A stretch of DNA of 59,685 nt from Alphaproteobacteria bacterium UBA6149 (GTDB lineage Bacteria > Pseudomonadota > Alphaproteobacteria > Rickettsiales > UBA998), in the NCBI GenBank assembly GCA_002423155.1, contig DIUV01000012.1, positions 1-59,685 of the forward strand, in the 5' to 3' direction. The notes beneath the pieces were generated by a model. The model was not told where the DNA came from and searched no databases. It worked only from the letters and a program-made list of their open reading frames with translations. Of this stretch, positions 12,147 to 24,077 are shown piece by piece; position 1 is the stretch's first letter, and the number at the start of each line of letters is the position of its first letter. The position numbers and the translations under genes are program-made.

Positions 12147-12782
12147 TCAACCAGCAAGATAAAGCGATTGCTTATTTCCCAATAATTTTTCATGCAAAGT
12201 CTTTAGCGCGGCAAATTCATGCGGATAGGCAAAATTTTGTTCGGGCATTTGCATAATCTCCGATATAGGTAAAATTTTGATGCCGCGTACTTCATTATGG
12301 GTAGCAACAAAGCTTGCTTGCTTATATTGTTCATCTCCAGTTAGTTTTTGCGCATGTTCTTGTAGTTGAACTAATTCTTCTGCGGTTAGCTCTAAAGCAT
12401 GACCATGATAACAAACTGGTAATGCAGGGTTTTTATAATCAATGCCGGCAGAAATAATTTGTAATCTTTGTGCGTCGGGAGCAATAATCGGCGTCCCTTC
12501 AGCATTCACAACTTCTTCGCGCAATTCGCGCACGGCACCTTCGGCTAATTGCTCTCCTGCGCTATTATTGCTACCTATATCTACATAGCCACCTGGTAAG
12601 CCGAGCCGTCCATCGCAGCGCTCTACTAACAATACAGATGGTTTAGCTTTGCGGCTTTGTATGCCATTACTAAGTGTAGGATTAAAATAACAAGCAACGA
12701 ACGAACCAACCGTCGCGGTTTTTACTGTATGCTCCATGGGTTCGGTTAAACTGGACCATGCGGGGAGTTTATTATCAGTCAT
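12147..12782 (-). CDS. Nudix hydrolase, probable ADP-ribose/NAD pyrophosphatase
   Basis: VLLVERCDGRLGLPGGYVD...GEQLAEGAVRELREEV Nudix box (with insertion); FAYPH resembles the LAFDH motif of ADPR-pyrophosphatase-type Nudix domains. Confidence 0.75.
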   Translation of the reverse strand: MTDNKLPAWSSLTEPMEHTVKTATVGSFVACYFNPTLSNGIQSRKAKPSVLLVERCDGRLGLPGGYVDIGSNNSAGEQLAEGAVRELREEVVNAEGTPIIAPDAQRLQIISAGIDYKNPALPVCYHGHALELTAEELVQLQEHAQKLTGDEQYKQASFVATHNEVRGIKILPISEIMQMPEQNFAYPHEFAALKTLHEKLLGNKQSLYLAG

Positions 12783-12797
12783 TTTTATTCTTTCTTT

Positions 12798-14402
12798 TTA
12801 AAAAAATTTTGATATTTCGTTGTAGAAAGGAGCAAACCCACCAAAAAAGTACTTTGACAATATTGATAAACCATAATAATTACTAATAATTGTTGTGATA
12901 ATTAACAATAATGATGGACATAAATGTATGTGATTTCTAAATGCTTTTAGAAATGAAAAATAAGGGTGGATTTTGATTAAAAATTGTGTTGGCGGGGGAT
13001 AAAAAGCTATTAACATCAACGGCATTAATGGCAGCATATAACGACCTTGAAAGCCATTAATATAATTATTTGTTAATGGATTCCATTGTATATGTAAGGC
13101 GAGTAATGTTAGAAAGAATGTTACTATAGTCACACATACTAATAGAATCCTTATTCTCATCAATAATAACAAGCCATATTTATCGTTATCTTCTTCAATG
13201 GGAGTGCGAGTAAATAATAATAAGAACGCCACAAACATAGCAATAATACTGGAAGTTTTGTTTACAGGTATTTTACTTTCTGTTAGCCCACCAATAGCTT
13301 GAAAAAAAACATCATCTGCCCAAAAGCTTTTATTGGTAAAAGTATTGTATAATATTTTTGCCGCCCGCATAGGTTGTGTTCTTAACAATAACATTTGTTG
13401 TTTAGGAGAGCTATGAATCATTTGATCTGTTTCATCATTCTTAATAAAATTATATTTACTTAGTCTGATTTGTTCGGCTTCTTTTATTTGTGGATCTAAG
13501 CTGTTTGATCTTTCTATTGCTGCTTGTAAAATCTTAACCGCTTCCATATTCCATACCATACCTACAGAGAATGAAATTATAAAAATTGTTGAAATAATAA
13601 TAGCTACCTGCTTGCTAGATTTTCTTATAATGTTAGGAATAAAAAGCAATGTTAGTGAAGTGAAATAAACTATTTTGCTTAAAGCAATAGCTATAGCTAA
13701 AGAAGATGTTATTAAATAATATTTACAAGAGAATACTTTATTTTCATTGTTTGGCGATAAATTTGTTCTTAATAAGAAAGAAACAAACAGCAAAATAAAT
13801 CCTATCGTCAAAGAATCAGCGCTTACCATAGAGCGCCCACACATTGCCATAGGCCACAACATCACGGCACAAATGCTCCATTGTGCGTAGGGAAGTTTCT
13901 TTATTGCATAAGCAATAAGCAACGTGCTTGATAACAATGATATTATGCGCAGCAGATAAAACAATACAAAAGGGGGTGTGTGTAAAGATTGAAAAATATA
14001 AGAAGATATTATAGTAGGAATATATGCGACTGGTGAATATAAATCAACCGTACCAAGATTATTTTGATATTTAACCAGTTCGTTTTTGGCAATATCATCA
14101 TTACCTGCATCTAAAATAGATTTCATAATATCGTAATTATACTGACCATTAAAGCCTATGCGAGGGCGAAAAGAGCTTCCTTTAATTAAAAAATCCACAT
14201 AAGATTTATTAATTTCATATTCTTGCCATATTTTACCTTTAGAATATCCAATAACCCTCATATAATGCCCATATTCATCGTGAGAGCGAAACGGTGGGGT
14301 AATAAATATATATGCAAAGCCTATTACAATGGATAATATAAAAAAAAGTTGATGAGGAAGAATAGGTGCGTTTCTTAGAAAAGAACTTTTATTTTTCAAC
14401 AT
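12798..14402 (-). CDS. GT-C fold integral membrane glycosyltransferase (DUF2142-like, GtrC role)
   Basis: TPPFRSHDEYGHY, LYSPVAYIP, GFQGRYMLP motifs; many TM segments; clustered with GT2 and GtrA genes. Confidence 0.72.
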   Translation of the reverse strand: MLKNKSSFLRNAPILPHQLFFILSIVIGFAYIFITPPFRSHDEYGHYMRVIGYSKGKIWQEYEINKSYVDFLIKGSSFRPRIGFNGQYNYDIMKSILDAGNDDIAKNELVKYQNNLGTVDLYSPVAYIPTIISSYIFQSLHTPPFVLFYLLRIISLLSSTLLIAYAIKKLPYAQWSICAVMLWPMAMCGRSMVSADSLTIGFILLFVSFLLRTNLSPNNENKVFSCKYYLITSSLAIAIALSKIVYFTSLTLLFIPNIIRKSSKQVAIIISTIFIISFSVGMVWNMEAVKILQAAIERSNSLDPQIKEAEQIRLSKYNFIKNDETDQMIHSSPKQQMLLLRTQPMRAAKILYNTFTNKSFWADDVFFQAIGGLTESKIPVNKTSSIIAMFVAFLLLFTRTPIEEDNDKYGLLLLMRIRILLVCVTIVTFFLTLLALHIQWNPLTNNYINGFQGRYMLPLMPLMLIAFYPPPTQFLIKIHPYFSFLKAFRNHIHLCPSLLLIITTIISNYYGLSILSKYFFGGFAPFYNEISKFF

Positions 14403-14414
14403 AAAGCACCAAAT

Positions 14415-15323
14415 TTATTGTGATAAATAATGTAACTGCTTCAATGACCTTCCCATTTTTGATACTGAATCTAAAATAAGTCCACAAGCCATAGAAATGG
14501 TTGAAATAATTGACAAACCTGTACACAATACCGCTGTTGGCAACCTTTCTACAGTTCCCACTGCTATAAAGTTGGCAATAATTGGAACGGCCAATACAAT
14601 CGAAACCAAGAATAAAAACAGAGAAATTGTACCATAAAATAATATGGGCTTGTTGTGCCGAGTAAAATAAACTATTGCAAGCAATATCTTAAGACCATCT
14701 CTATAGGTATTAAGTTTGCTTCTGGAGCCATTTGGACGAGGATAATATTCGGTTTCAATTTCTGCTATTGACAGATTCTGGTCTAGGGCATGTATTGCTA
14801 ACTCTGTTTCTATTTCAAAACTGGAGAAACTAACAGAAAAAGACTTAACAAATCTTCGTGATAACACCCTATATCCAGAAAAAACATCTTCAAAAGCCTG
14901 ACCAAACAATAATGAAATAAGAAATGTAAATAATTTGTTACCAGAAACATGACAAAATCTGTAGGCCATTCCAGCATCAACAGCAACTCTTCTTCCCACG
15001 ACCATGTCTAGTTTGTTGTTTATTAAGAAATCCAGCATTTGCGGTGCCTTACTTATTTGATAAGTTGCATCACCATCCGCCATTATGTAATAGTCTGCCT
15101 CAACATCACGAAACATTCTGCGGACAACACAACCCTTTCCTTGTTTTTTTTCTATCCGCACTATAGCTCCAGCTTTTTTAGCTATATCACCAGTTCCGTC
15201 ATTTGAATTATTATCGTAAACATATATCTTAGCTAAAGGCAAATATAGTTTAAAATCTGATATTACTTTCTCAATAGAGAGGGCTTCATTATAACAAGGA
15301 ATAATAACGGCTATTTCTGGCAT
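14415..15323 (-). CDS. GT2 polyprenyl-phosphate glycosyltransferase (GtrB/DPM1-like)
   Basis: IAVIIPCYNE, DNNSND, GKG, DGDATY, SGYR, FEIETEL; two C-terminal TM helices. Confidence 0.88.
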   Translation of the reverse strand: MPEIAVIIPCYNEALSIEKVISDFKLYLPLAKIYVYDNNSNDGTGDIAKKAGAIVRIEKKQGKGCVVRRMFRDVEADYYIMADGDATYQISKAPQMLDFLINNKLDMVVGRRVAVDAGMAYRFCHVSGNKLFTFLISLLFGQAFEDVFSGYRVLSRRFVKSFSVSFSSFEIETELAIHALDQNLSIAEIETEYYPRPNGSRSKLNTYRDGLKILLAIVYFTRHNKPILFYGTISLFLFLVSIVLAVPIIANFIAVGTVERLPTAVLCTGLSIISTISMACGLILDSVSKMGRSLKQLHYLSQ

Positions 15324-15352
15324 GATACTGCATTACATGTTTTAAATTTAAT

Positions 15353-15775
15353 TTAGATTGGTTTTTTAAATACAACAAAATTATAAAATACAAAGTTAAA
15401 TAATGCTGCAATAGCACTAGATAATAAAATTGAAATATCTCTATTTATAAGTGGGATTATGTATATAATCCCACAGAAAGCAAGGTAATTTATCACCCCA
15501 CCAAAAAGGCTTCCACTAAAATATAAGAAGAATTCTTTGGCTAATCCAACATAAGAAAATAATTCTCTATTTTGTTTGAAAGTTACCGTCCTGTTCCCAA
15601 TCCAAGTTACAAATATCGCAAAAAATATCGAAATTATACGAGAAAACGAATCATCAATGAGGTTTGAAAACATACGAAACACCGCAATATCTACAATCAT
15701 TCCGATAAAGCCAACGGTCAAAAATATTGCCATCTTTTGTTTATTTATCAACACATTCACCAAAGAAACAACCAA
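15353..15775 (-). CDS. gtrA: GtrA-family flippase-like protein
   Basis: FLTVGFIGMIVD, NRTVTF, NFVFYNFVVFK; four TMs. Confidence 0.8.
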   Translation of the reverse strand: MVVSLVNVLINKQKMAIFLTVGFIGMIVDIAVFRMFSNLIDDSFSRIISIFFAIFVTWIGNRTVTFKQNRELFSYVGLAKEFFLYFSGSLFGGVINYLAFCGIIYIIPLINRDISILLSSAIAALFNFVFYNFVVFKKPI

Positions 15776-15853: not shown

Positions 15854-18800
15854 TTATGCTGCCAGTTGAAAACCTTGATCTAACTCATAAGTAGGGCTTT
15901 TTCTAACCTGTTCAGATAGTTCTTTTATGGAGTCCTGTAGTTTATCAAAATCTGCTTCTAGTAATCCAGTTTTGAACTCTTTATCAAAAATCGCCATTTT
16001 ATGGGCAGTTTGCAAACTCATGCCCGTTTTGGCTCTAAAGCCATGTTCACCTAGTTTTTCGTATAATACATCTAAGCTTAACTCTGCCATGTGGGTTTTG
16101 AAATGGTCGCCAATTTCGTGGGTGCGTACATCATCATGCGGAGTTACATTTTTGCCTGTATGCGGTGCGCGAGTGGCTGCGGTGCGCTTGAATTGTCCAC
16201 GCTCCCAAGCATTAGTGAACTTCAACATCATATTGCGTAAAGCCACTGAATCTTTGGGGAACAAATCATCTTGTTTTAAGATTTCAAACGCTTCGGTAGG
16301 CGTATTGCGATCTAACACGATGACATCCACCATTTTATCTCCTTGCGGATAGGTAAAGCCGAAATCTTTTTCGTCGGTTTGTTTTGCCTCGCCTGCTACT
16401 TCTTGGCGCAATTCTGCTGATGGAGCTTGTTGGTTGATGAGTGACAAAGCCTTAATTGGTTTTAACTCTGCCAAACCATTTGCTTCCATGTAAGCAAGGC
16501 CAGCAGTTATATCATGCTTTTGTATGCCCCCTATTGGGTTAGCACCGCCCATATGCATATCACCACCAATAGTAGTATATCCCAAAGCGGATTCAGAAGC
16601 GTTAGAGGTAACCAACGCAATTTTTTTCTGGATATTCCCCAAAGCTCCCGGAGTTATAACCCGAACGCGTGCCTGATAATTTTGCAATGCCACGTCAAAA
16701 GCAGGATCTGACCAAGTGGGTATTTCTTGTTTGCAAGCAGCAGATATATAATCTGGCAATTTAGGATGGCTACCCAAAGGAGCATAAATATAATTGGTAA
16801 TAATTTTCTTTATGCGTCCTTCAGATATATGTAACTGATCTTCTTCGGATAAATTTTCAGTATTTAATCCTTGTAAAGCTATATCTTTATTTTCTCTAGC
16901 AAACCGAGTTAAATCTAGTCCTGAAGAACCAATAATTGCTTCATCAACAATTCTTTGTTGGGGGGCAACGTAAAAATTTCCACCAATACCTTGAATATCG
17001 TGTTCTATGTTTACTATTTCATAGGTTTCTTTTTTATTGTCTTTTACCCATTTTGTTAGTTGATTATTTTCAATTTTATCTAATGTTTGATCAAAATAAA
17101 TCTTCTTGGTGATTGGCTGGTCATGTTCGTCTTTTAAAACATTTCCTTGCTCATCTTTAGCCAATACTTCAACTAAAGTTCCACCTTCAATCAAAAATCT
17201 TGCCGCATCTTGGGTTTCTTTAGAGCTAATATCGGTAGGCAAATAAACGCAGGTTAGAAGATTTTTCTTTATTGCTGCTATGGCTGCTTTTTCACCTTCT
17301 GCTTGTTCTATTTTTAGAGCTTCATCTTTGTATTCAAGTTTTGGAAAATGTTCAAAAAATCCTTTTATGCCATTTTCTTTAACTTCTAATTCCACCATGC
17401 TGGCAACTTCAACCGCACCATAAGCGGAATCTTTTCCACCAGATAATGATACTACAAACCCCTGACAAAAGGGCTGTTTCTGCATATAATCACGCATCCA
17501 CAAAGCAATAGAGCGAGCATATTCTTCATGTTTTAAATCTGACTTTTCAGCATATTCAAAAACATTTTCTGCCCCCGTTGCCTCGCCTACCACGTGCTTA
17601 TCGCTAAAATGATGTTTAATTTCCACATCGGGCTTATAATTGCGCTCCGCCAGAGGGATTTCGGCGACTAAACTACTGGTGGATACGTCTTTGAAACTAT
17701 AACGATCCCCATGATGGACGATTTTACCATTTTGGGCAAAAATCTGGCTACCTTCGGCCGCCATAGTGCCGGAATTGGTGCCTAAGAAATTGGTGTAAAT
17801 ATATGCTCCGCAATGTTGCGAGCCGGTTTCGCACAAACCCTTCGAGCGGATAGATTCTTTATCCAGGCTCGGCTGGGGTTTGCTGGCGCTGGGGTTTAGC
17901 ACCACACCTATATCGGTATCTTTCGATAATCTTGCTAAATAACGCGCCTGTTCTTTTTCGCGGTTATTAATGCTAGAATCATCACCCACGCCCGGCCAGC
18001 CTTCGGCGCAAATTTCGTGGAATAAGGTGATGTGCCGACCATCCGCCGCTTGCAGACCAACCACAGGTTTACCAAAGGGAACTTTTTTGCCGTTCGGTAA
18101 GGCAATTTCAATGGTGCCTTTGCTAACTGGCCAAGCGTTGAATTGGCGAGGTTCGTATTCAGCTGCTCCGTCTGCCAAAATAGACTTAGCAGAAATAGCG
18201 ACCACCTCTCCACCAGCAATGGTTATTTGCGTATTAAAGGGGCGGTTATTGATGTTATATTGTGGATCATCCGCAGGGAAACTTTTATCTGCATAATGCC
18301 AAGGCGCGCCTACGGAAATTACTAAATTGGGGTTTTTATCTTTGGCATATTTGGCGATTAATTGCAGCGCTTCCCACACATGGTCATTATTTTTATTCCA
18401 TTGATGATAATCATCCGCGCCATAGCCCACTAAGCCCATTTCTTCGAGCGCTAAAATATCCACATTGGCTTTTTCCGCTTTATCAATCGCCGCGCAGATA
18501 TTTTTTACGTTAGTAGCAAAATCATAAGAAGTCTGGTTACAACTGCCCGACATAATATTAACCGGAACAGTTGCTTTCACTTGCGTAGTTTTATTCAGCT
18601 CATCCGCTTTGTTTTTCAAACTATCAATAGTTAATTCCTGACCATCTGCTTGCAGCGCCGAAATTATTTGTGCGGTAGAAATATGTTTTTCTTTTGCCAA
18701 ACGGTCTAAACTCAAATCCAACATAGTAAGGGGAATATTTGCCGCTTCTAACGCCTCCGCACTCGGATTAGCGGCGCGTGCCTGCTTAGCCAAAAACACA

Positions 18801-19432
18801 ATATATTCCGGATCAGCAAAGGCAGATTTTTCTTTATCACTTAAATTACGCAAATCCTTCACCCGTAATTGGCTAGCGGCCATAGTGGGGGAGGTTGGTT
18901 GCTCTACCAATGCCGGGAAATTCATTTCCGTGAAAGTTTCTTCCCAGGAATATTGATGTTTTACGCTGCCATCTTCCAAAGTTCGTTGTGCTACGGCATC
19001 TTCAGGTTTGCCGACGAAATAATGCATAGTTTTGTCACGCAAATCTGGGTGCTTGCCGTCTATTTCTATTTCGCCATTTAGTTTGTTGACCAGATTCCGA
19101 CACCAAAGATTATTATTTCCCAAATCTTTATAGCCGACCAAAACATAATCTTTGCCTTCTTCTTTATCATGCAAAGCGCGGCGCAATTGTTCTTTTTGTT
19201 GCTCTAACGTCAACGGGTTTTTGAGCGGGCTAAACAGACCATCATCAAAGCCATTTTCTTTTACCGCTTCGTTGCAAGAACCAATCACAATAATGGGCAC
19301 CAGGCCTTGCTCCATATTCTTACGAATAGTTTTCAAATGCTCCTGATGCAAAGGCTGCCGCCGCCCGAATAAGAGCGAATATTCAATTCCTTGTTCGCGT
19401 GCTTGTTCAAAATTGGCAAAATTCTCAACCAT
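15854..19432 (-). CDS. nadE: Fusion protein: NadM-like NMN/NaMN adenylyltransferase domain + glutamine-dependent NAD+ synthetase (nitrilase + synthetase domains)
   Basis: N-term LFGRRQPLHQEH, IVIGS, KNPLT, MAASQLR (NadM-like); nitrilase triad in LEEMGLVGY / SAKSIL / EICAEGW; synthetase VVSLSGGKDSA, QNYQARVR, SNASESALGY, PSAEL, QTDE, QFKR. Confidence 0.85.
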   Translation of the reverse strand: MVENFANFEQAREQGIEYSLLFGRRQPLHQEHLKTIRKNMEQGLVPIIVIGSCNEAVKENGFDDGLFSPLKNPLTLEQQKEQLRRALHDKEEGKDYVLVGYKDLGNNNLWCRNLVNKLNGEIEIDGKHPDLRDKTMHYFVGKPEDAVAQRTLEDGSVKHQYSWEETFTEMNFPALVEQPTSPTMAASQLRVKDLRNLSDKEKSAFADPEYIVFLAKQARAANPSAEALEAANIPLTMLDLSLDRLAKEKHISTAQIISALQADGQELTIDSLKNKADELNKTTQVKATVPVNIMSGSCNQTSYDFATNVKNICAAIDKAEKANVDILALEEMGLVGYGADDYHQWNKNNDHVWEALQLIAKYAKDKNPNLVISVGAPWHYADKSFPADDPQYNINNRPFNTQITIAGGEVVAISAKSILADGAAEYEPRQFNAWPVSKGTIEIALPNGKKVPFGKPVVGLQAADGRHITLFHEICAEGWPGVGDDSSINNREKEQARYLARLSKDTDIGVVLNPSASKPQPSLDKESIRSKGLCETGSQHCGAYIYTNFLGTNSGTMAAEGSQIFAQNGKIVHHGDRYSFKDVSTSSLVAEIPLAERNYKPDVEIKHHFSDKHVVGEATGAENVFEYAEKSDLKHEEYARSIALWMRDYMQKQPFCQGFVVSLSGGKDSAYGAVEVASMVELEVKENGIKGFFEHFPKLEYKDEALKIEQAEGEKAAIAAIKKNLLTCVYLPTDISSKETQDAARFLIEGGTLVEVLAKDEQGNVLKDEHDQPITKKIYFDQTLDKIENNQLTKWVKDNKKETYEIVNIEHDIQGIGGNFYVAPQQRIVDEAIIGSSGLDLTRFARENKDIALQGLNTENLSEEDQLHISEGRIKKIITNYIYAPLGSHPKLPDYISAACKQEIPTWSDPAFDVALQNYQARVRVITPGALGNIQKKIALVTSNASESALGYTTIGGDMHMGGANPIGGIQKHDITAGLAYMEANGLAELKPIKALSLINQQAPSAELRQEVAGEAKQTDEKDFGFTYPQGDKMVDVIVLDRNTPTEAFEILKQDDLFPKDSVALRNMMLKFTNAWERGQFKRTAATRAPHTGKNVTPHDDVRTHEIGDHFKTHMAELSLDVLYEKLGEHGFRAKTGMSLQTAHKMAIFDKEFKTGLLEADFDKLQDSIKELSEQVRKSPTYELDQGFQLAA

Positions 19433-20060
19433 GGTAGTGTCCCTGTTTTTCGGCTTTAGTTAATTCAGCTGCTGATGTTTTTATTTTTATTGTTGGCTTA
19501 ATTATTTTGGGAGTTAGGGCTTGCTCAATAGTTTTTTCTAAAAATTCCACAGCAGTTTCCATGGTTTGCCGTCTATCCGCTGTGCGTTCTCCCTTAAAGT
19601 GAAATTCATCACACATAAAAACTTCCCCATTAACCGCCGAGGCAATACACACCGTACCCCCAGAAATTCCCCGCGCATCGTCACCATTAGGGCCTGCATA
19701 ACCAGTAACCGCTACCGAAATTTGTGCCCGGGAATTTTTTAATGCTCCCAAAGCCATTTCTCTGGCCACGGGCTGGCTTACTGCCTCATATTCAGCTAAA
19801 GTTTCTGCCTTTACTCCAAGCATATCCTGCTTAGCATCATTATTATATACTATATAAGCACGATCTAACATATTTGAAGATCCGCCCAAGCAGGTAAGCA
19901 AATTAGCAATGCCGCCCCCCGTAAGCGACTCTGCGGTTACGATTTTTATATGATGATTCTTGCACTTTTGCAGCAAACCATCTACGCGGCGCAATAAATC
20001 TGCCCCATAAATATTTAATAATTCAGGGTCGTAAATAGTACCCGAAAGATTATCGCTCAT
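19425..20060 (-). CDS. pncC: NMN deamidase (CinA C-terminal domain)
   Basis: TAESLTGG, YNNDAKQDMLGV, AVS...EMALGA, VTGYAGP, GTVCIA, GER..DR motifs; overlaps the nadE-fusion start. Confidence 0.88.
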   Translation of the reverse strand: MSDNLSGTIYDPELLNIYGADLLRRVDGLLQKCKNHHIKIVTAESLTGGGIANLLTCLGGSSNMLDRAYIVYNNDAKQDMLGVKAETLAEYEAVSQPVAREMALGALKNSRAQISVAVTGYAGPNGDDARGISGGTVCIASAVNGEVFMCDEFHFKGERTADRRQTMETAVEFLEKTIEQALTPKIIKPTIKIKTSAAELTKAEKQGHYHG

Positions 20061-20320
20061 AGCTTAAAACCATATTTGTCATGCATTTTCTGTAGCACAG
20101 ATTCATTAGGCGCATCTCCATAACCTGACTCAATCACTTCACCATATTCAATCAAATTAATCGCCCCCGTTTTGATTTTTTGTAAAAATGAGCGCAATTT
20201 CAGAGCTTCTACTTTCAAGAAAAACCACGCAGGGCGGCCAGTTTTATCCTTGCCACCTTGCACGAGATAAATATTTTGGCTTTCTCTGAAGTTAGAAATT
20301 TTCTGGGCGAAAGAGGTCAT
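20057..20320 (-). CDS. Small conserved hypothetical protein (87 aa)
   Basis: ATG 20320 lies 4 nt after the pncB stop and its stop overlaps the pncC start (ATGA); sequence IYLVQGGKDKTGRPAWFFLKV...YGEVIESGYGDAP looks like a folded domain. Confidence 0.75.
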   Translation of the reverse strand: MTSFAQKISNFRESQNIYLVQGGKDKTGRPAWFFLKVEALKLRSFLQKIKTGAINLIEYGEVIESGYGDAPNESVLQKMHDKYGFKL

Positions 20321-20324
20321 TCTA

Positions 20325-22190
20325 TTATGCTGCCATAGAAGGTGATTTTCCACCAGCTATTTCCAGCGAACCAGAAATATCAGTACCAGGTTTATTCATA
20401 GACGCCATAATTGCCTGACGTTGTTTTAAAACCAATGGGTCCATCAAAATTATTTGTGGTTTGGGGTCGTCTAGTCTTTTTATTTCCTCAGATAGGCTGG
20501 CTCGTTGAGCACGGGCGTAAGTTTTAATCTCATCTAAGTCAGTAACTTCTGGGCCGCCTTTATAAGCAGGTTTAGTTTTAGGCGCACCATGCTCATTATA
20601 AACATATTTAGAAGCAGCATCTTTTTGACGCACAAAGATAGGTTTCAACAAAGTTTCGGCTGACGCAACCTCGCCTACGTCTATTTTATTACCTGCGGTA
20701 TCTACGATACCATCTTGTAGCAATTCACGCCAGTTATCACCACGACGCAAAGACTCATCAATAATAACATCCGCCAATATTTTGCCATTAGCATCTTTTA
20801 AGCGCAGCGTATTTAGCTCTACTCCTGGCATAGAAGATTTAGGGCCAGGAAGCGAAGGATCATTTTTATCCACTCCCGCAACTTTCATAGTGCGTACCAT
20901 ATCTTTGGTAATCGGCACAACTTTCTGGTTAACTATAGCAGTTTTAACTTCGCCATTTTCTAAATTTGCTTCAAAATCTTCATGAATAATTTCACTCGCA
21001 GATATTTTGTAAACTCCTCCGCGTAATGGCCCTGGATTGCCTAATTCGGTGCCTACTCCGTAAACTTGGATAGGTAATTTTTCGCCTTTTTCTTCTATGC
21101 TACGTTTTTGCATCGCATGAATAGATTTTTCATCTAAACCATCAGTGGCAAAAATCTTGGTATTATTAAATAATTCAGGGTGGGTTTGGCGTGCTTCGTC
21201 TAGCAATGCTTTTGCTTCCCAGCTTAATGCATATAAATCACCCGAATCCAAACGCACACCGTCTAACTCTACGTTCATTTCTATGGCCGCACGAATAGCG
21301 TTTTTAACCCCCTGTACGGGATCAAAAGTATCAACTAACAATACTGAATTATTCGCCATGCTTTTTAAATAAGCTTTAAAAGCAATTAGTTCTAACTCGC
21401 TATTGCCAACATTAGGCCATGCGGCATCAACGGTTTGTTTTACATTATTTTCAAAAAATTCCCTGTCGTCACTGGTGTAATAAGGGCTTATCCATTCAAT
21501 CCCTGCTTTTTTAGCTTCTACATAGCCCTCAAAAGCGGCTTTAAAGCCCATAATCCAGCTATGCGCCATAGTTCCTGTGGGCGGAATACCCAATACACGC
21601 GCGGCATCAACATCCGCCGTAAAGGCGGCGCCACCAATATAAGAAGCACGAGAAACCCCAGCGTCTAAAGTGCCAGAACGGCGTAAAGAAAAATCGGCAA
21701 AGGGGCGACCTTGTCCTGCTTCATCAATCCGCGCACCACGAGTTGCAATAATTGAAGCAGAATTCATAATATTTAAAATAGCCGACTCGACTAATTGCGC
21801 CTGAACTAGAGAACCAGTAATCCGCAAAGCAGGCCCTTGCCCAAGCATAGCGGTTCCCTCGGGCACTGCATCTACTTGTAAATTAAGTTTAGAATTAGCT
21901 AGATAATTTAAAAATTCTTCAGAGAAAAGCCGCTCGCCTTTTTTCTCTAGGGTACGCAAATAGGCAATTTTTTCTTCATCAAATTTGAAATTATTTAAAA
22001 AATCAACTACACCCTCTAAACCAGCAGCAACCGTATAACCACCACCAAAGGGAGGATTGCGCCAATGCATGTAAAAAGTTGCTTCTTCTTCCTGCCGACC
22101 TTGGTCAAAATAACCTTGCGCCATGGTTAACTGGTACATATCGGTTTTAGTCGGGTTTAAATCCCGGTAGCTTTTTTCTAAATATCCCAT
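20325..22190 (-). CDS. pncB: Nicotinate phosphoribosyltransferase, with insertions and C-terminal extension
   Basis: TDMYQLTM, RNPPFGGGY, DFSLRR, GTMAHSW (phospho-His), LLVDTFD, GVRLDSGDL, GVGT; likely start ATG 22190 with AAAGGA RBS (track start 22250). Confidence 0.88.
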   Translation of the reverse strand: MGYLEKSYRDLNPTKTDMYQLTMAQGYFDQGRQEEEATFYMHWRNPPFGGGYTVAAGLEGVVDFLNNFKFDEEKIAYLRTLEKKGERLFSEEFLNYLANSKLNLQVDAVPEGTAMLGQGPALRITGSLVQAQLVESAILNIMNSASIIATRGARIDEAGQGRPFADFSLRRSGTLDAGVSRASYIGGAAFTADVDAARVLGIPPTGTMAHSWIMGFKAAFEGYVEAKKAGIEWISPYYTSDDREFFENNVKQTVDAAWPNVGNSELELIAFKAYLKSMANNSVLLVDTFDPVQGVKNAIRAAIEMNVELDGVRLDSGDLYALSWEAKALLDEARQTHPELFNNTKIFATDGLDEKSIHAMQKRSIEEKGEKLPIQVYGVGTELGNPGPLRGGVYKISASEIIHEDFEANLENGEVKTAIVNQKVVPITKDMVRTMKVAGVDKNDPSLPGPKSSMPGVELNTLRLKDANGKILADVIIDESLRRGDNWRELLQDGIVDTAGNKIDVGEVASAETLLKPIFVRQKDAASKYVYNEHGAPKTKPAYKGGPEVTDLDEIKTYARAQRASLSEEIKRLDDPKPQIILMDPLVLKQRQAIMASMNKPGTDISGSLEIAGGKSPSMAA

Positions 22191-22261
22191 GATTTTTCCT
22201 TTTTTGTTTTTATTTGGCAAAAAGTTTAATGATTTTTTATATCTTGTCAATTATTTATTAA

Positions 22262-23458
22262 CTAAATAGCAATATCTGCACGCTGCCAACTAGCCACACG
22301 ATTAGCAAAAGGCGAAGGCTTGGTGAGCGCTAATGGTATTTTCTGTTGCCGCGTCAACTCTTGCGCGATTAATTTCCCGGTCGATAAAATCGCCACGCGC
22401 TCTTTTAATTCAGGAGAATTTAGTTCCTTACGTTTTTGTTCTATTTCAAAAACCGAGTCGGTACAAACCACTTGGTCTATCAGATTTTTTCCTGCAAATT
22501 GCGGCTCTAGTAGATTTTCCAATGCGGATTTCCCGTCTTTGCCGATGCAAATTGCGTGGGTGAAATAAGTGGCAACCGATTTTGCTCCACGCTCTTTCAA
22601 AGCCTTAGCAGCATTAATCAAAGTACCACCACCATCGCTCATATCATCGATTATTACGCAATCTTTATCTGCAACATCCCCCTCGAACCCAGCAACAAAA
22701 GTTTCGTTAGCGGATTTATGCTCTTTGGCGATTTTAAATAAATGCACATCCGCCGCCTCTTCGCTGGTATCTTGCACGGCGGCGGCGAGTTTTCGTGCAC
22801 GGATTTGTCCGCGATCATTAGGTTTATCCGCCCCATCAGGAGCTCCAATAACCATATTGTTTAAATTAGGAAAACGGGTTTTTATATCCTGCGCAAAAAG
22901 TTCGGTGCTAGATAAATAGTTATAATTTTCACCAAACTCATCTTTCCAGAATTTTACCGTTCCTTCGGAATGCGGTTCGATAGTAATGATTTTATCCGCC
23001 CCATCTGCGCGTAAATCACGAGCAAAACGTTTGGCATTTACTGAACAAATACGCCCTTGTTCGCTAAAAGGTCTATCTTGGCGGTCGTATGCGCAATTGG
23101 GCATCGCTACCGTAACTTCTTTTACCCCATGGTCTTTTAAGGTGGTAATAGTCGAACGAACGCGCTCTATACTATCACTTACTATATCTGGTTGTTCACC
23201 AGTTGATTCAACGATTGTAACTTTAGCATGACGTAATTTCGCCAAATTTTCCTGATAACGTTTCTGGGCGTCCGCATGGCTGGTAAGCTCACGCTCATCC
23301 CGCAAAAAAGGAAATAATTCACAATGGACTGCACCGCTATTAAAGGGTCCAAAACTGACATCAATTTTCTCCCCTTTAAAATTTTTAAGAATTTCCTCTC
23401 GGCTTTCCTTCGTAACTCGCGGACCAAAGATAATGTAATTTTTATTATTATTTTGCAC
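22262..23458 (-). CDS. prs: Divergent ribose-phosphate pyrophosphokinase (PRPP synthetase family)
   Basis: AYDRQDR, GADKIITIEPH, APDG, KDCVIIDDMSDGGGTL, LKERGAKSV...THA motifs; likely GTG start at 23458 with GGAG RBS. Confidence 0.8.
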   Translation of the reverse strand: MQNNNKNYIIFGPRVTKESREEILKNFKGEKIDVSFGPFNSGAVHCELFPFLRDERELTSHADAQKRYQENLAKLRHAKVTIVESTGEQPDIVSDSIERVRSTITTLKDHGVKEVTVAMPNCAYDRQDRPFSEQGRICSVNAKRFARDLRADGADKIITIEPHSEGTVKFWKDEFGENYNYLSSTELFAQDIKTRFPNLNNMVIGAPDGADKPNDRGQIRARKLAAAVQDTSEEAADVHLFKIAKEHKSANETFVAGFEGDVADKDCVIIDDMSDGGGTLINAAKALKERGAKSVATYFTHAICIGKDGKSALENLLEPQFAGKNLIDQVVCTDSVFEIEQKRKELNSPELKERVAILSTGKLIAQELTRQQKIPLALTKPSPFANRVASWQRADIAI

Positions 23459-23506
23459 GTAAATCACTCCGTTTTTAAATTGCGGAGGATTTAAACATGG
23501 GAAATA

Positions 23507-23531: not shown

Positions 23532-23789
23532 ACAATTGTCACCCTACACGACAGTACCGTTAATATTACGAAGCTATTGAATGGTAAGTATTTATTTCTT
23601 AAAATCGCTCTCTCCGTCGTCATTCCTGCTGCGGCTAAGAATCTCTTTTTCCGCTTGTGAGTGCCTCGTTTAGGGCGAAAGAGATTCTTAGCCGCAGCAG
23701 GAATGACGACGGAGAGAGCGAACTTTTTTATTGTATTTCAATATATAAATGCCTTGTTAATACTACTGTCGTGTAGGGTGGACAATTGT
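23532..23789. repeat. Nested palindromic element (family 3)
   Basis: Outer IR ACCCTACACGACAGTA / TACTGTCGTGTAGGGT; perfect 44-bp inner arms 23605-23648 and 23678-23721 containing GTCATTCC..GGAATGAC REP-type ends. Confidence 0.8.
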
Positions 23790-24000: not shown

Positions 24001-24077
24001 TGGTGCACCCAGAGCGATTCGAACGCCCGACCTTCTGATTCGTAGTCAGATGCTCTATCCAGCTGAGCTATGGGTGC
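24001..24077 (-). tRNA. tRNA-Arg (anticodon ACG)
   Basis: GCACCCA acceptor stem, TAGCTCAGCTGGATAGAGC D-arm, CTGACT-ACG-AATCAG anticodon arm, GTTCGAATC T-loop, encoded CCA end. Confidence 0.97.

Follow-up and report, generated by a model that had tools for sequence, protein, structure and literature searches.

The stretch of DNA analysed here (the window, 59,685 nucleotides) contains an open reading frame in which a NadM-like region precedes a glutaminase and an NAD synthetase (Table 1), raising the question of whether one chain could take NaMN all the way to NAD, and whether its N-terminal domain, in which the HxGH motif reads HQEH, is an active adenylyltransferase. The translation runs for 1192 residues with no internal stops, and the motifs named in a preliminary description of this DNA (NadM-type motifs, an E-K-C triad and SGGKDS) all lie where that description had placed them, with IVIGS at residues 48-52, KNPLT at 71-75, MAASQLR at 184-190 and SGGKDS at 664-669. 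Pfam reports CN_hydrolase (298-433) and NAD_synthase (906-1068), both above their cut-offs, and no match in the N-terminus. An assembly chimera could be ruled out because six further proteins of 1138-1222 residues, recovered by protein search, share the whole architecture, and the fusion is present in independent records. The large insertions that had been noted in the synthetase proved to be of two kinds: the segment at residues 755-812 is peculiar to this protein, being gapped in at least six of eight homologues, whereas the remaining extra length is common to the clade. The fusion is real and conserved, and it is probably functional.

Table 1. Features of the fusion gene and its surroundings, in window coordinates
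Feature	Position	Strand	Details
Three-domain fusion gene (NadM-like + glutaminase + NAD synthetase)	15854..19432	-	1192 aa
Predicted NadM-like nucleotidyltransferase domain, divergent, helical C-terminal cap	18587..19432	-	residues 1-282
GRRQPLHQEH	19337..19366	-	residues 23-32; aligned to GRMQPFHRGH of M. thermoautotrophicum NMNAT
Nitrilase-type glutaminase domain	17597..18571	-	residues ~288-612; E331-K416-C475
NAD synthetase domain	15854..17545	-	residues ~630-1192; SGGKDS, NYQARVR, PSAEL, QTDE, QFKR
Insertion peculiar to the 1192-aa fusion	16997..17170	-	residues 755-812; predicted beta-rich extension
pncC, CinA domain, likely NMN deamidase	19425..20060	-	stop overlaps fusion start by 8 nt
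98-aa ORF	20057..20353	-	two paralogues in genome; homologue before fusion in L065
pncB, nicotinate phosphoribosyltransferase	20325..22250	-	TIGR01513 331 bits vs cut-off 297
prs, PRPP synthetase	22262..23467	-	second copy; other copy on contig C50
Nudix hydrolase	12147..12782	-	homologous to Nudix of G008 and L133 cassettes

In NCBIfam, NadM matches at residues 16-127 fell below the cut-off (best E 5.6e-6), and the curated thresholds of TIGR01527, PRK01153, PRK05379 and PRK13793 were not reached, PRK01153 scoring 26-30 bits against 127 and the others lying further off; the NadD model TIGR00482 gave no match to the fusion gene at E values up to 1. A profile of 19 family sequences reached the archaeal NMNAT 1ej2 at E 4.8e-10, and all 13 of the PDB sequences that it matched are NMN adenylyltransferases. 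In addition, PRK01153 was matched by 19/19 family rows, with no CoaD model listed. On its sequence, the N-terminal domain is filed as NadM-like, outside the curated NadM families. As the preliminary description had supposed, the region models as a Rossmann-fold nucleotidyltransferase: for the predicted structure of residues 1-282 (pLDDT 91), Foldseek and VIA-align agree in placing NadM on top, with the 16 best Foldseek ranks all NadM/NMNAT (best E 3.3e-6) and a VIA-align Z of 13.6 against NadM 2qjo (rmsd 3.5, 177 aligned). PPAT/CoaD folds followed at Z 12.6, about 1 below; with the folds so nearly tied, it is sequence and context that decide the family.

The domain has the marks of the HIGH superfamily, namely a Rossmann-like nucleotidyltransferase fold and (H/T)xxH after the first strand (H29-Q-E-H32). 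Residues R24, H29, H32, S52, D103 and W110 align with R11, H16, H19, S39, D80 and W87 of 1ej2, and H32, S52, D103 and W110 are invariant across 19/19 family rows. The last three correspond to S39, D80 and W87, which we take to have active-site roles in 1ej2. PDB titles record mutants of NMNAT R11, H19 and R136, and R190 would be the counterpart of R136, going by its motif only. The domain thus has in common with NadM (1ej2, and the NadM-Nudix proteins 2qjo, 2qjt and 2r5w) the fold, the R-H-H ATP motif, the S/D/W positions, an SxxxxR-type motif and the ability, as predicted here, to stand in for NadD. It differs in reading GRR where NadM has GRF/GRM, in the free residue within HxGH, in some 80 extra residues, in scoring below every curated cut-off, and in its partner, which is NadE here and Nudix in NadM-Nudix. 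A quick tree places 33 family rows apart from 12 classic NadM-like rows found locally (support 99); the family makes up a divergent subfamily that is new, although the pathway to which it belongs is well known.

The preliminary description had taken HQEH as a possible sign of altered specificity or of a nucleotide-sensing module. Neither reading is borne out by the family, in which the position is variable: it is occupied by G9 M8 I6 V5 A3 E1 R1 in 33 family rows and by M16 V10 G10 A6 I2 E1 L1 R1 in 47 library representatives, these being the ones showing the motif among the top 53 from the library. Gly is therefore a minority state (10/47), and the mark of the family is the second Arg of GRR, present in 46/47 representatives. 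Forms without Gly are, moreover, the sole candidate adenylyltransferase in several genomes, a sensing role is unlikely, and the published NMNAT motif GxFxPx[H/T]xxH leaves this position free in the available text of PMC5889475. Glu31 itself is rare (1/33 rows and 1/47 representatives), so the domain in this fusion may have lower activity than other family members, at a cost that would be local to this protein.

For the remainder of the chain, PF00795 scored 33.3 bits in the glutaminase domain (cut-off 23.2), and PF02540 and TIGR00552 scored 75.4 and 71.8 in the synthetase domain (cut-offs 21 and 63.65); the full-length models PRK13981 and PRK02628 placed the fusion below cut-off. Cytophaga 3ilv was matched at E 1.7e-48 by sequence and 2.1e-26 by fold, and the triad residues E331, K416 and C475, together with the loop residues, are invariant in 9/9 aligned fusions. 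A nitrilase-like glutaminase with an E-K-C triad followed by a synthetase with an SGGxDS loop is the layout of type F NadE (Cytophaga 3ilv, human 6ofb), and the NadE part is accordingly predicted, from such features, to be a glutamine-dependent NAD synthetase of type F. Unlike those enzymes, it is preceded by an extra N-terminal enzyme domain and is itself longer by about 270 residues, and its clade is separate from that of the NadE inherited within its order. A quick tree built without metagenome loci, two duplicates, the split copy L071 and the broken copy G180 separates 33 cassette NadEs from 7 NadEs inherited in the order, with long branches between them.

The fusion closes a run of genes on one strand, prs, pncB, the 98-aa ORF, pncC and the fusion itself. 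Of the sequence blocks that the available text of PMC3855486 gives for active enzymes, PncC retains S, YxNxxK and R and deviates in two others; the 98-aa ORF matched nothing in Pfam or NCBIfam. The Nudix gene is separated from the fusion by three inserted glycosylation genes of low GC and low GC3. The cassette itself has GC3 and codon use ordinary for the genome, so its composition does not support a recent transfer, no attachment repeat was found for an integration at tRNA-Arg, and promoter and terminator scans gave matches near chance level. Elsewhere, pncB and pncA lie just upstream in 11/11 fused loci of the genome scan, genome G043 likewise having both in this place, and a nicotinamidase-like pncA is upstream in 4/4 fused metagenome loci. 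At L069 the genes run nadD-pncB-pncA-nadE-nadK; the NadE there is unfused, falls in the same subclade as the one studied here and is 48% identical to it, and a canonical NadD gene stands in for the N-terminal domain. In G194, the domain and NadE are split into adjacent genes.

The genome that carries the window (G000, 99% complete) yielded no nadD when searched with the NadD model, compared with 17/17 family relatives that have the gene. Five of the relatives' NadD sequences, and a profile made of them, found nothing significant in it, and the site next to rsfS, which lies mid-contig, holds no nadD. In this genome CTP_transf_like matched only CoaD-like and RfaE-like proteins, CoaD being separately present. 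No NadE other than the fusion was found; the genome has NadA and NadC, searches for pncA and a clear nadB returned neither, and no other gene able to make NAD was found in either G000 or G043. The assembly is a draft of 60 contigs with some N runs, and proA, whose neighbour in one relative is nadD, stops 118 bases short of the end of contig C51, where a repeat shared by contig ends is reached. Across the fusion-carrying genomes tested, nadD is kept in 9/13, and the domain must therefore often be redundant. Genomes with only an unfused NadE have nadD in 10/10 cases and the domain in none of the 10; for these tests 21 of the 27 scan loci were taken, loci in genomes already covered being left out. 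By comparison, nadD was not found in 11/15 strong carriers of the domain versus 7/53 non-carriers, although the 11 comprise six lineages, with six genomes from one genus, and such kin are not independent. A 214-aa nucleotidyltransferase of G661, considered as a NadD, reads by motif as a second CoaD.

The fusion was found in 2/60 relatives searched. Among 251 genomes of the order, strong domain matches numbered 15 and weak classic NadM-type matches 11, and 400 other genomes of the class gave no domain match at E 1e-20. Scans by short patterns, in which the locus counts are non-exhaustive, returned 27 loci from genomes (11 fused, 2 fusions of the domain to Prs and 14 with NadE only) and 19 from metagenomes (4 fused). 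The loci from genomes fall in Rickettsiales, Micavibrio, Rhodospirillaceae and other, mostly alphaproteobacterial, bins, and the organism of the window is itself likely Rickettsiales-like. A protein-cluster library held 52 domain clusters at E 1e-30 or better; in the 20 matches scanned, the partners were NadE (2), Prs (4), the inositol-monophosphatase family (3) and methyltransferase (2), and the domain also occurs alone. At L080 and L081 the Prs fusion lies beside a PRK09198-type phosphoribosyltransferase. In five genomes with the domain alone, neither nadD nor nadE was found; searches of these genomes found a PnuC-type uptake gene in none of the five, and a PRK09198-type gene was not found in four and is in pieces in the fifth. 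From these lone and Prs-fused members, dual use of NMN and NaMN by the family is plausible. The fusion cassette has a patchy distribution and, where present, is mostly an accessory.

Phages offer a parallel, in that NadV with NadM-Nudix and the pncB-nadD-nadE clusters of jumbo phages (available text of PMC9503650 and PMC11662467) and the NAD-rebuilding pathways NARP1-3 (available text of PMC13464706) are likewise compact, patchy sets that remake NAD from breakdown products. The fusion cassette, in contrast, is cellular and would take the deamidated route. NARP2 pairs a phage-encoded nicotinamide phosphoribosyltransferase with an NMN adenylyltransferase on the amidated route, whereas the neighbour here is PncB-type and sits among chromosomal genes. 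A viral origin found no confirmation: a relative was confirmed in 0/25 candidate viral stretches, and phage matches to the domain were weak and partial. Plasmid matches cover the NadE part only. One database label gives the three domains for a fusion homologue, indicating that automatic annotation has already seen the architecture. In keeping with the preliminary description, which knew of no characterised NadM-NadE(Gln) fusion, a literature search that placed most subscription papers and supplements outside its scope returned no paper describing a NadM-like-NadE fusion, although the genome table of PMC3376133 may include some. The predicted chemistry is likely to be familiar and the packaging a new arrangement.

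Taken together, we consider it quite likely that this one chain of 1192 residues makes NAD from NaMN in two steps and is the sole NaMN-to-NAD route here. The N-terminal domain would adenylylate NaMN with ATP to give NaAD, the glutaminase would free ammonia from glutamine, and the synthetase would amidate NaAD to NAD, as the intact motifs and fold suggest. NaMN would be supplied by PncB, from nicotinate and the PRPP made by Prs, and by PncC through deamidation of NMN, and possibly also by NadA and NadC encoded elsewhere in the genome. The order NaMN to NaAD to NAD, already proposed in the preliminary description, is supported by the fold, the conserved residues, the operon context and the absence of nadD in the genome. 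A comparable network is that of Acinetobacter, in which, according to the available text of PMC3376133, a bifunctional NadM works with a type F NadE; the enzyme pair and the inferred step order are the same, with two enzymes there and one chain here. In this lineage the cassette has likely taken over from both nadD and the inherited nadE, and the benefit of fusion would most likely be co-expression and co-inheritance, for which NaAD need not pass directly from one site to the other.

The reverse order would have NMN made first, by amidation of NaMN in the NadE part, and then adenylylated to NAD by the NadM-like domain. It has a precedent in F. tularensis, where NadM replaces NadD alongside an NMN synthetase (available text of PMC3376133). 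The family probably accepts NMN as well, judging from the Prs fusions beside a PRK09198-type gene and the five lone-domain genomes. However, the Francisella chain has 249 aa and a single domain, whereas the best matches of the fusion are two-domain NAD synthetases, and the neighbouring PncC would undo NMN synthesis. The gene context also argues against an NMN synthetase of that type: NadD prefers NaMN, and sister NadEs work with NadD, without the domain, in 10/10 genomes, one of them with nadD in the operon. We regard the reverse order as highly unlikely. Hardly more probable is an N-terminal domain with little or no catalytic activity that instead gives NadE a nucleotide sensor or scaffold: HQEH for HxGH, an Arg where NadM has Phe/Met, and the retention of nadD in most fusion genomes would all fit, but Gly is the exception in the family and the published motif leaves its position free, the substrate-side residues are invariant, and no other candidate NAD maker was found in G000 or G043. 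Transfer of the nucleotide to some other substrate, as in CoaD, cytidylyltransferases or FAD synthetase, strikes us as the most improbable of all. The close Z score of the PPAT folds, the fusions to methyltransferase and inositol-monophosphatase-family domains, and an Atlas search with the domain in which all matches were <0.9 and belonged to generic cytidylyltransferase-like clusters point that way; against them stand the PRK01153 and NMN adenylyltransferase matches of the family, the separately encoded CoaD and a context of NAD salvage.

An addition to the two-step NaMN-to-NAD reading, that NaAD is channelled directly between the two active sites, is unlikely in our estimation. The fusion has been kept, with a short linker, among proteins that are mutually 34-66% identical. 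Nevertheless, the NadE tree mixes fused with unfused forms (6-7 changes, of which at least 3-4 are forced by well-supported branches), the domain is joined to the glutaminase and not to the synthetase, the two parts are separate genes in G194, and the full-length model (pLDDT 74, pTM 0.59) fixes no interface. The NaAD site requires a synthetase dimer. Tight channelling is somewhat disfavoured because the domain has repeatedly been lost or re-fused, occurring alone or with Prs, the inositol-monophosphatase family or methyltransferase. We are equally doubtful of the fullest version, a single oligomeric enzyme that would convert NaMN, ATP and glutamine to NAD with NaAD channelled, stand at the centre of a mobile, cellular set of NAD-rebuilding genes (Nudix, Prs, PncA or PncC, PncB) and be essential in lineages that have lost nadD and nadE.

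For the organism, the two-step reading means that a genome apparently without the near-universal nadD contains a domain that likely replaces it and that standard Pfam annotation misses. The GRRxPMHxxH family as a whole is a candidate adenylyltransferase for the 11/15 carrier genomes, from six lineages, in which no nadD was found. Five of these 11 also yielded no nadE; they may import a ready-made precursor and complete NAD from it. An enzyme that makes NAD from NaMN in one chain would also be a convenient system in which to test channelling, and it might serve as a component in cofactor engineering.

The NadM-like domain recurs with several other partners and gene orders. In genome G008 (L021:837-9146), the fusion gene is preceded by a gene for a 935-aa PncB-PncA fusion, and its upstream side carries a Nudix gene, a PP2C phosphatase gene, and genes resembling vWA and kinase genes; the latter three we take to be a TerY-P-like triad. 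Two of these upstream genes have homologues on contig C20 of the UBA6149 genome. Two further loci (L080:7320-13647 and L081:7326-13694) share the order PRK09198-type phosphoribosyltransferase, NadM-like domain/Prs fusion, and separate NadE. The split cassette of G194 (L059:2654-12872) reads prs-pncB-pncA, a fusion of an inositol-monophosphatase-family domain with the NadM-like domain, nadE, and Nudix; at a guess, the substrate of the phosphatase-family domain could be NADP. A highly divergent member in G165 (L062:7616-9373), with the motif HRFQPFSERH, is fused to a methyltransferase domain and probably has an altered role. Remoter nucleotidyltransferase domains (P0075 and P0090) have NAD-kinase-like domains as fusion partners.

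Within the UBA6149 window, the gtrA, glycosyltransferase, and DUF2142 genes are likely a later insertion. The palindrome is a member of an interspersed repeat family, with 179 blastn hits across 45 of the 60 contigs of this genome, and no attachment repeat was found for the tRNA gene. A search of the same genome revealed no clear nadB; a second SdhA-like flavoprotein (C45:7015-8856) is encoded ~1.2 kb away from nadC.

Features surrounding the fusion gene and its cassette
Feature	Window position	Location	GC
gtrA, family 2 glycosyltransferase, DUF2142 membrane gene	12798-15775	between fusion gene and Nudix gene	near 30-35%
Nested palindrome, perfect 44-nt arms	23540-23780	upstream of prs	
tRNA-Arg(ACG)	24001-24077	~530 bases upstream of cassette	

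The NadM-like domain also occurs unfused, in G053, G125, G097, G079, and G147 (loci L032, L034, L035, L038, and L041), and neither nadD nor nadE was found in these five genomes. The G053 assembly is a single contig, 99% complete, in which the sole further match is CoaD-sized. PnuC was searched for in four of the five genomes, and none was found. The lone domain may adenylylate NMN obtained from a host.
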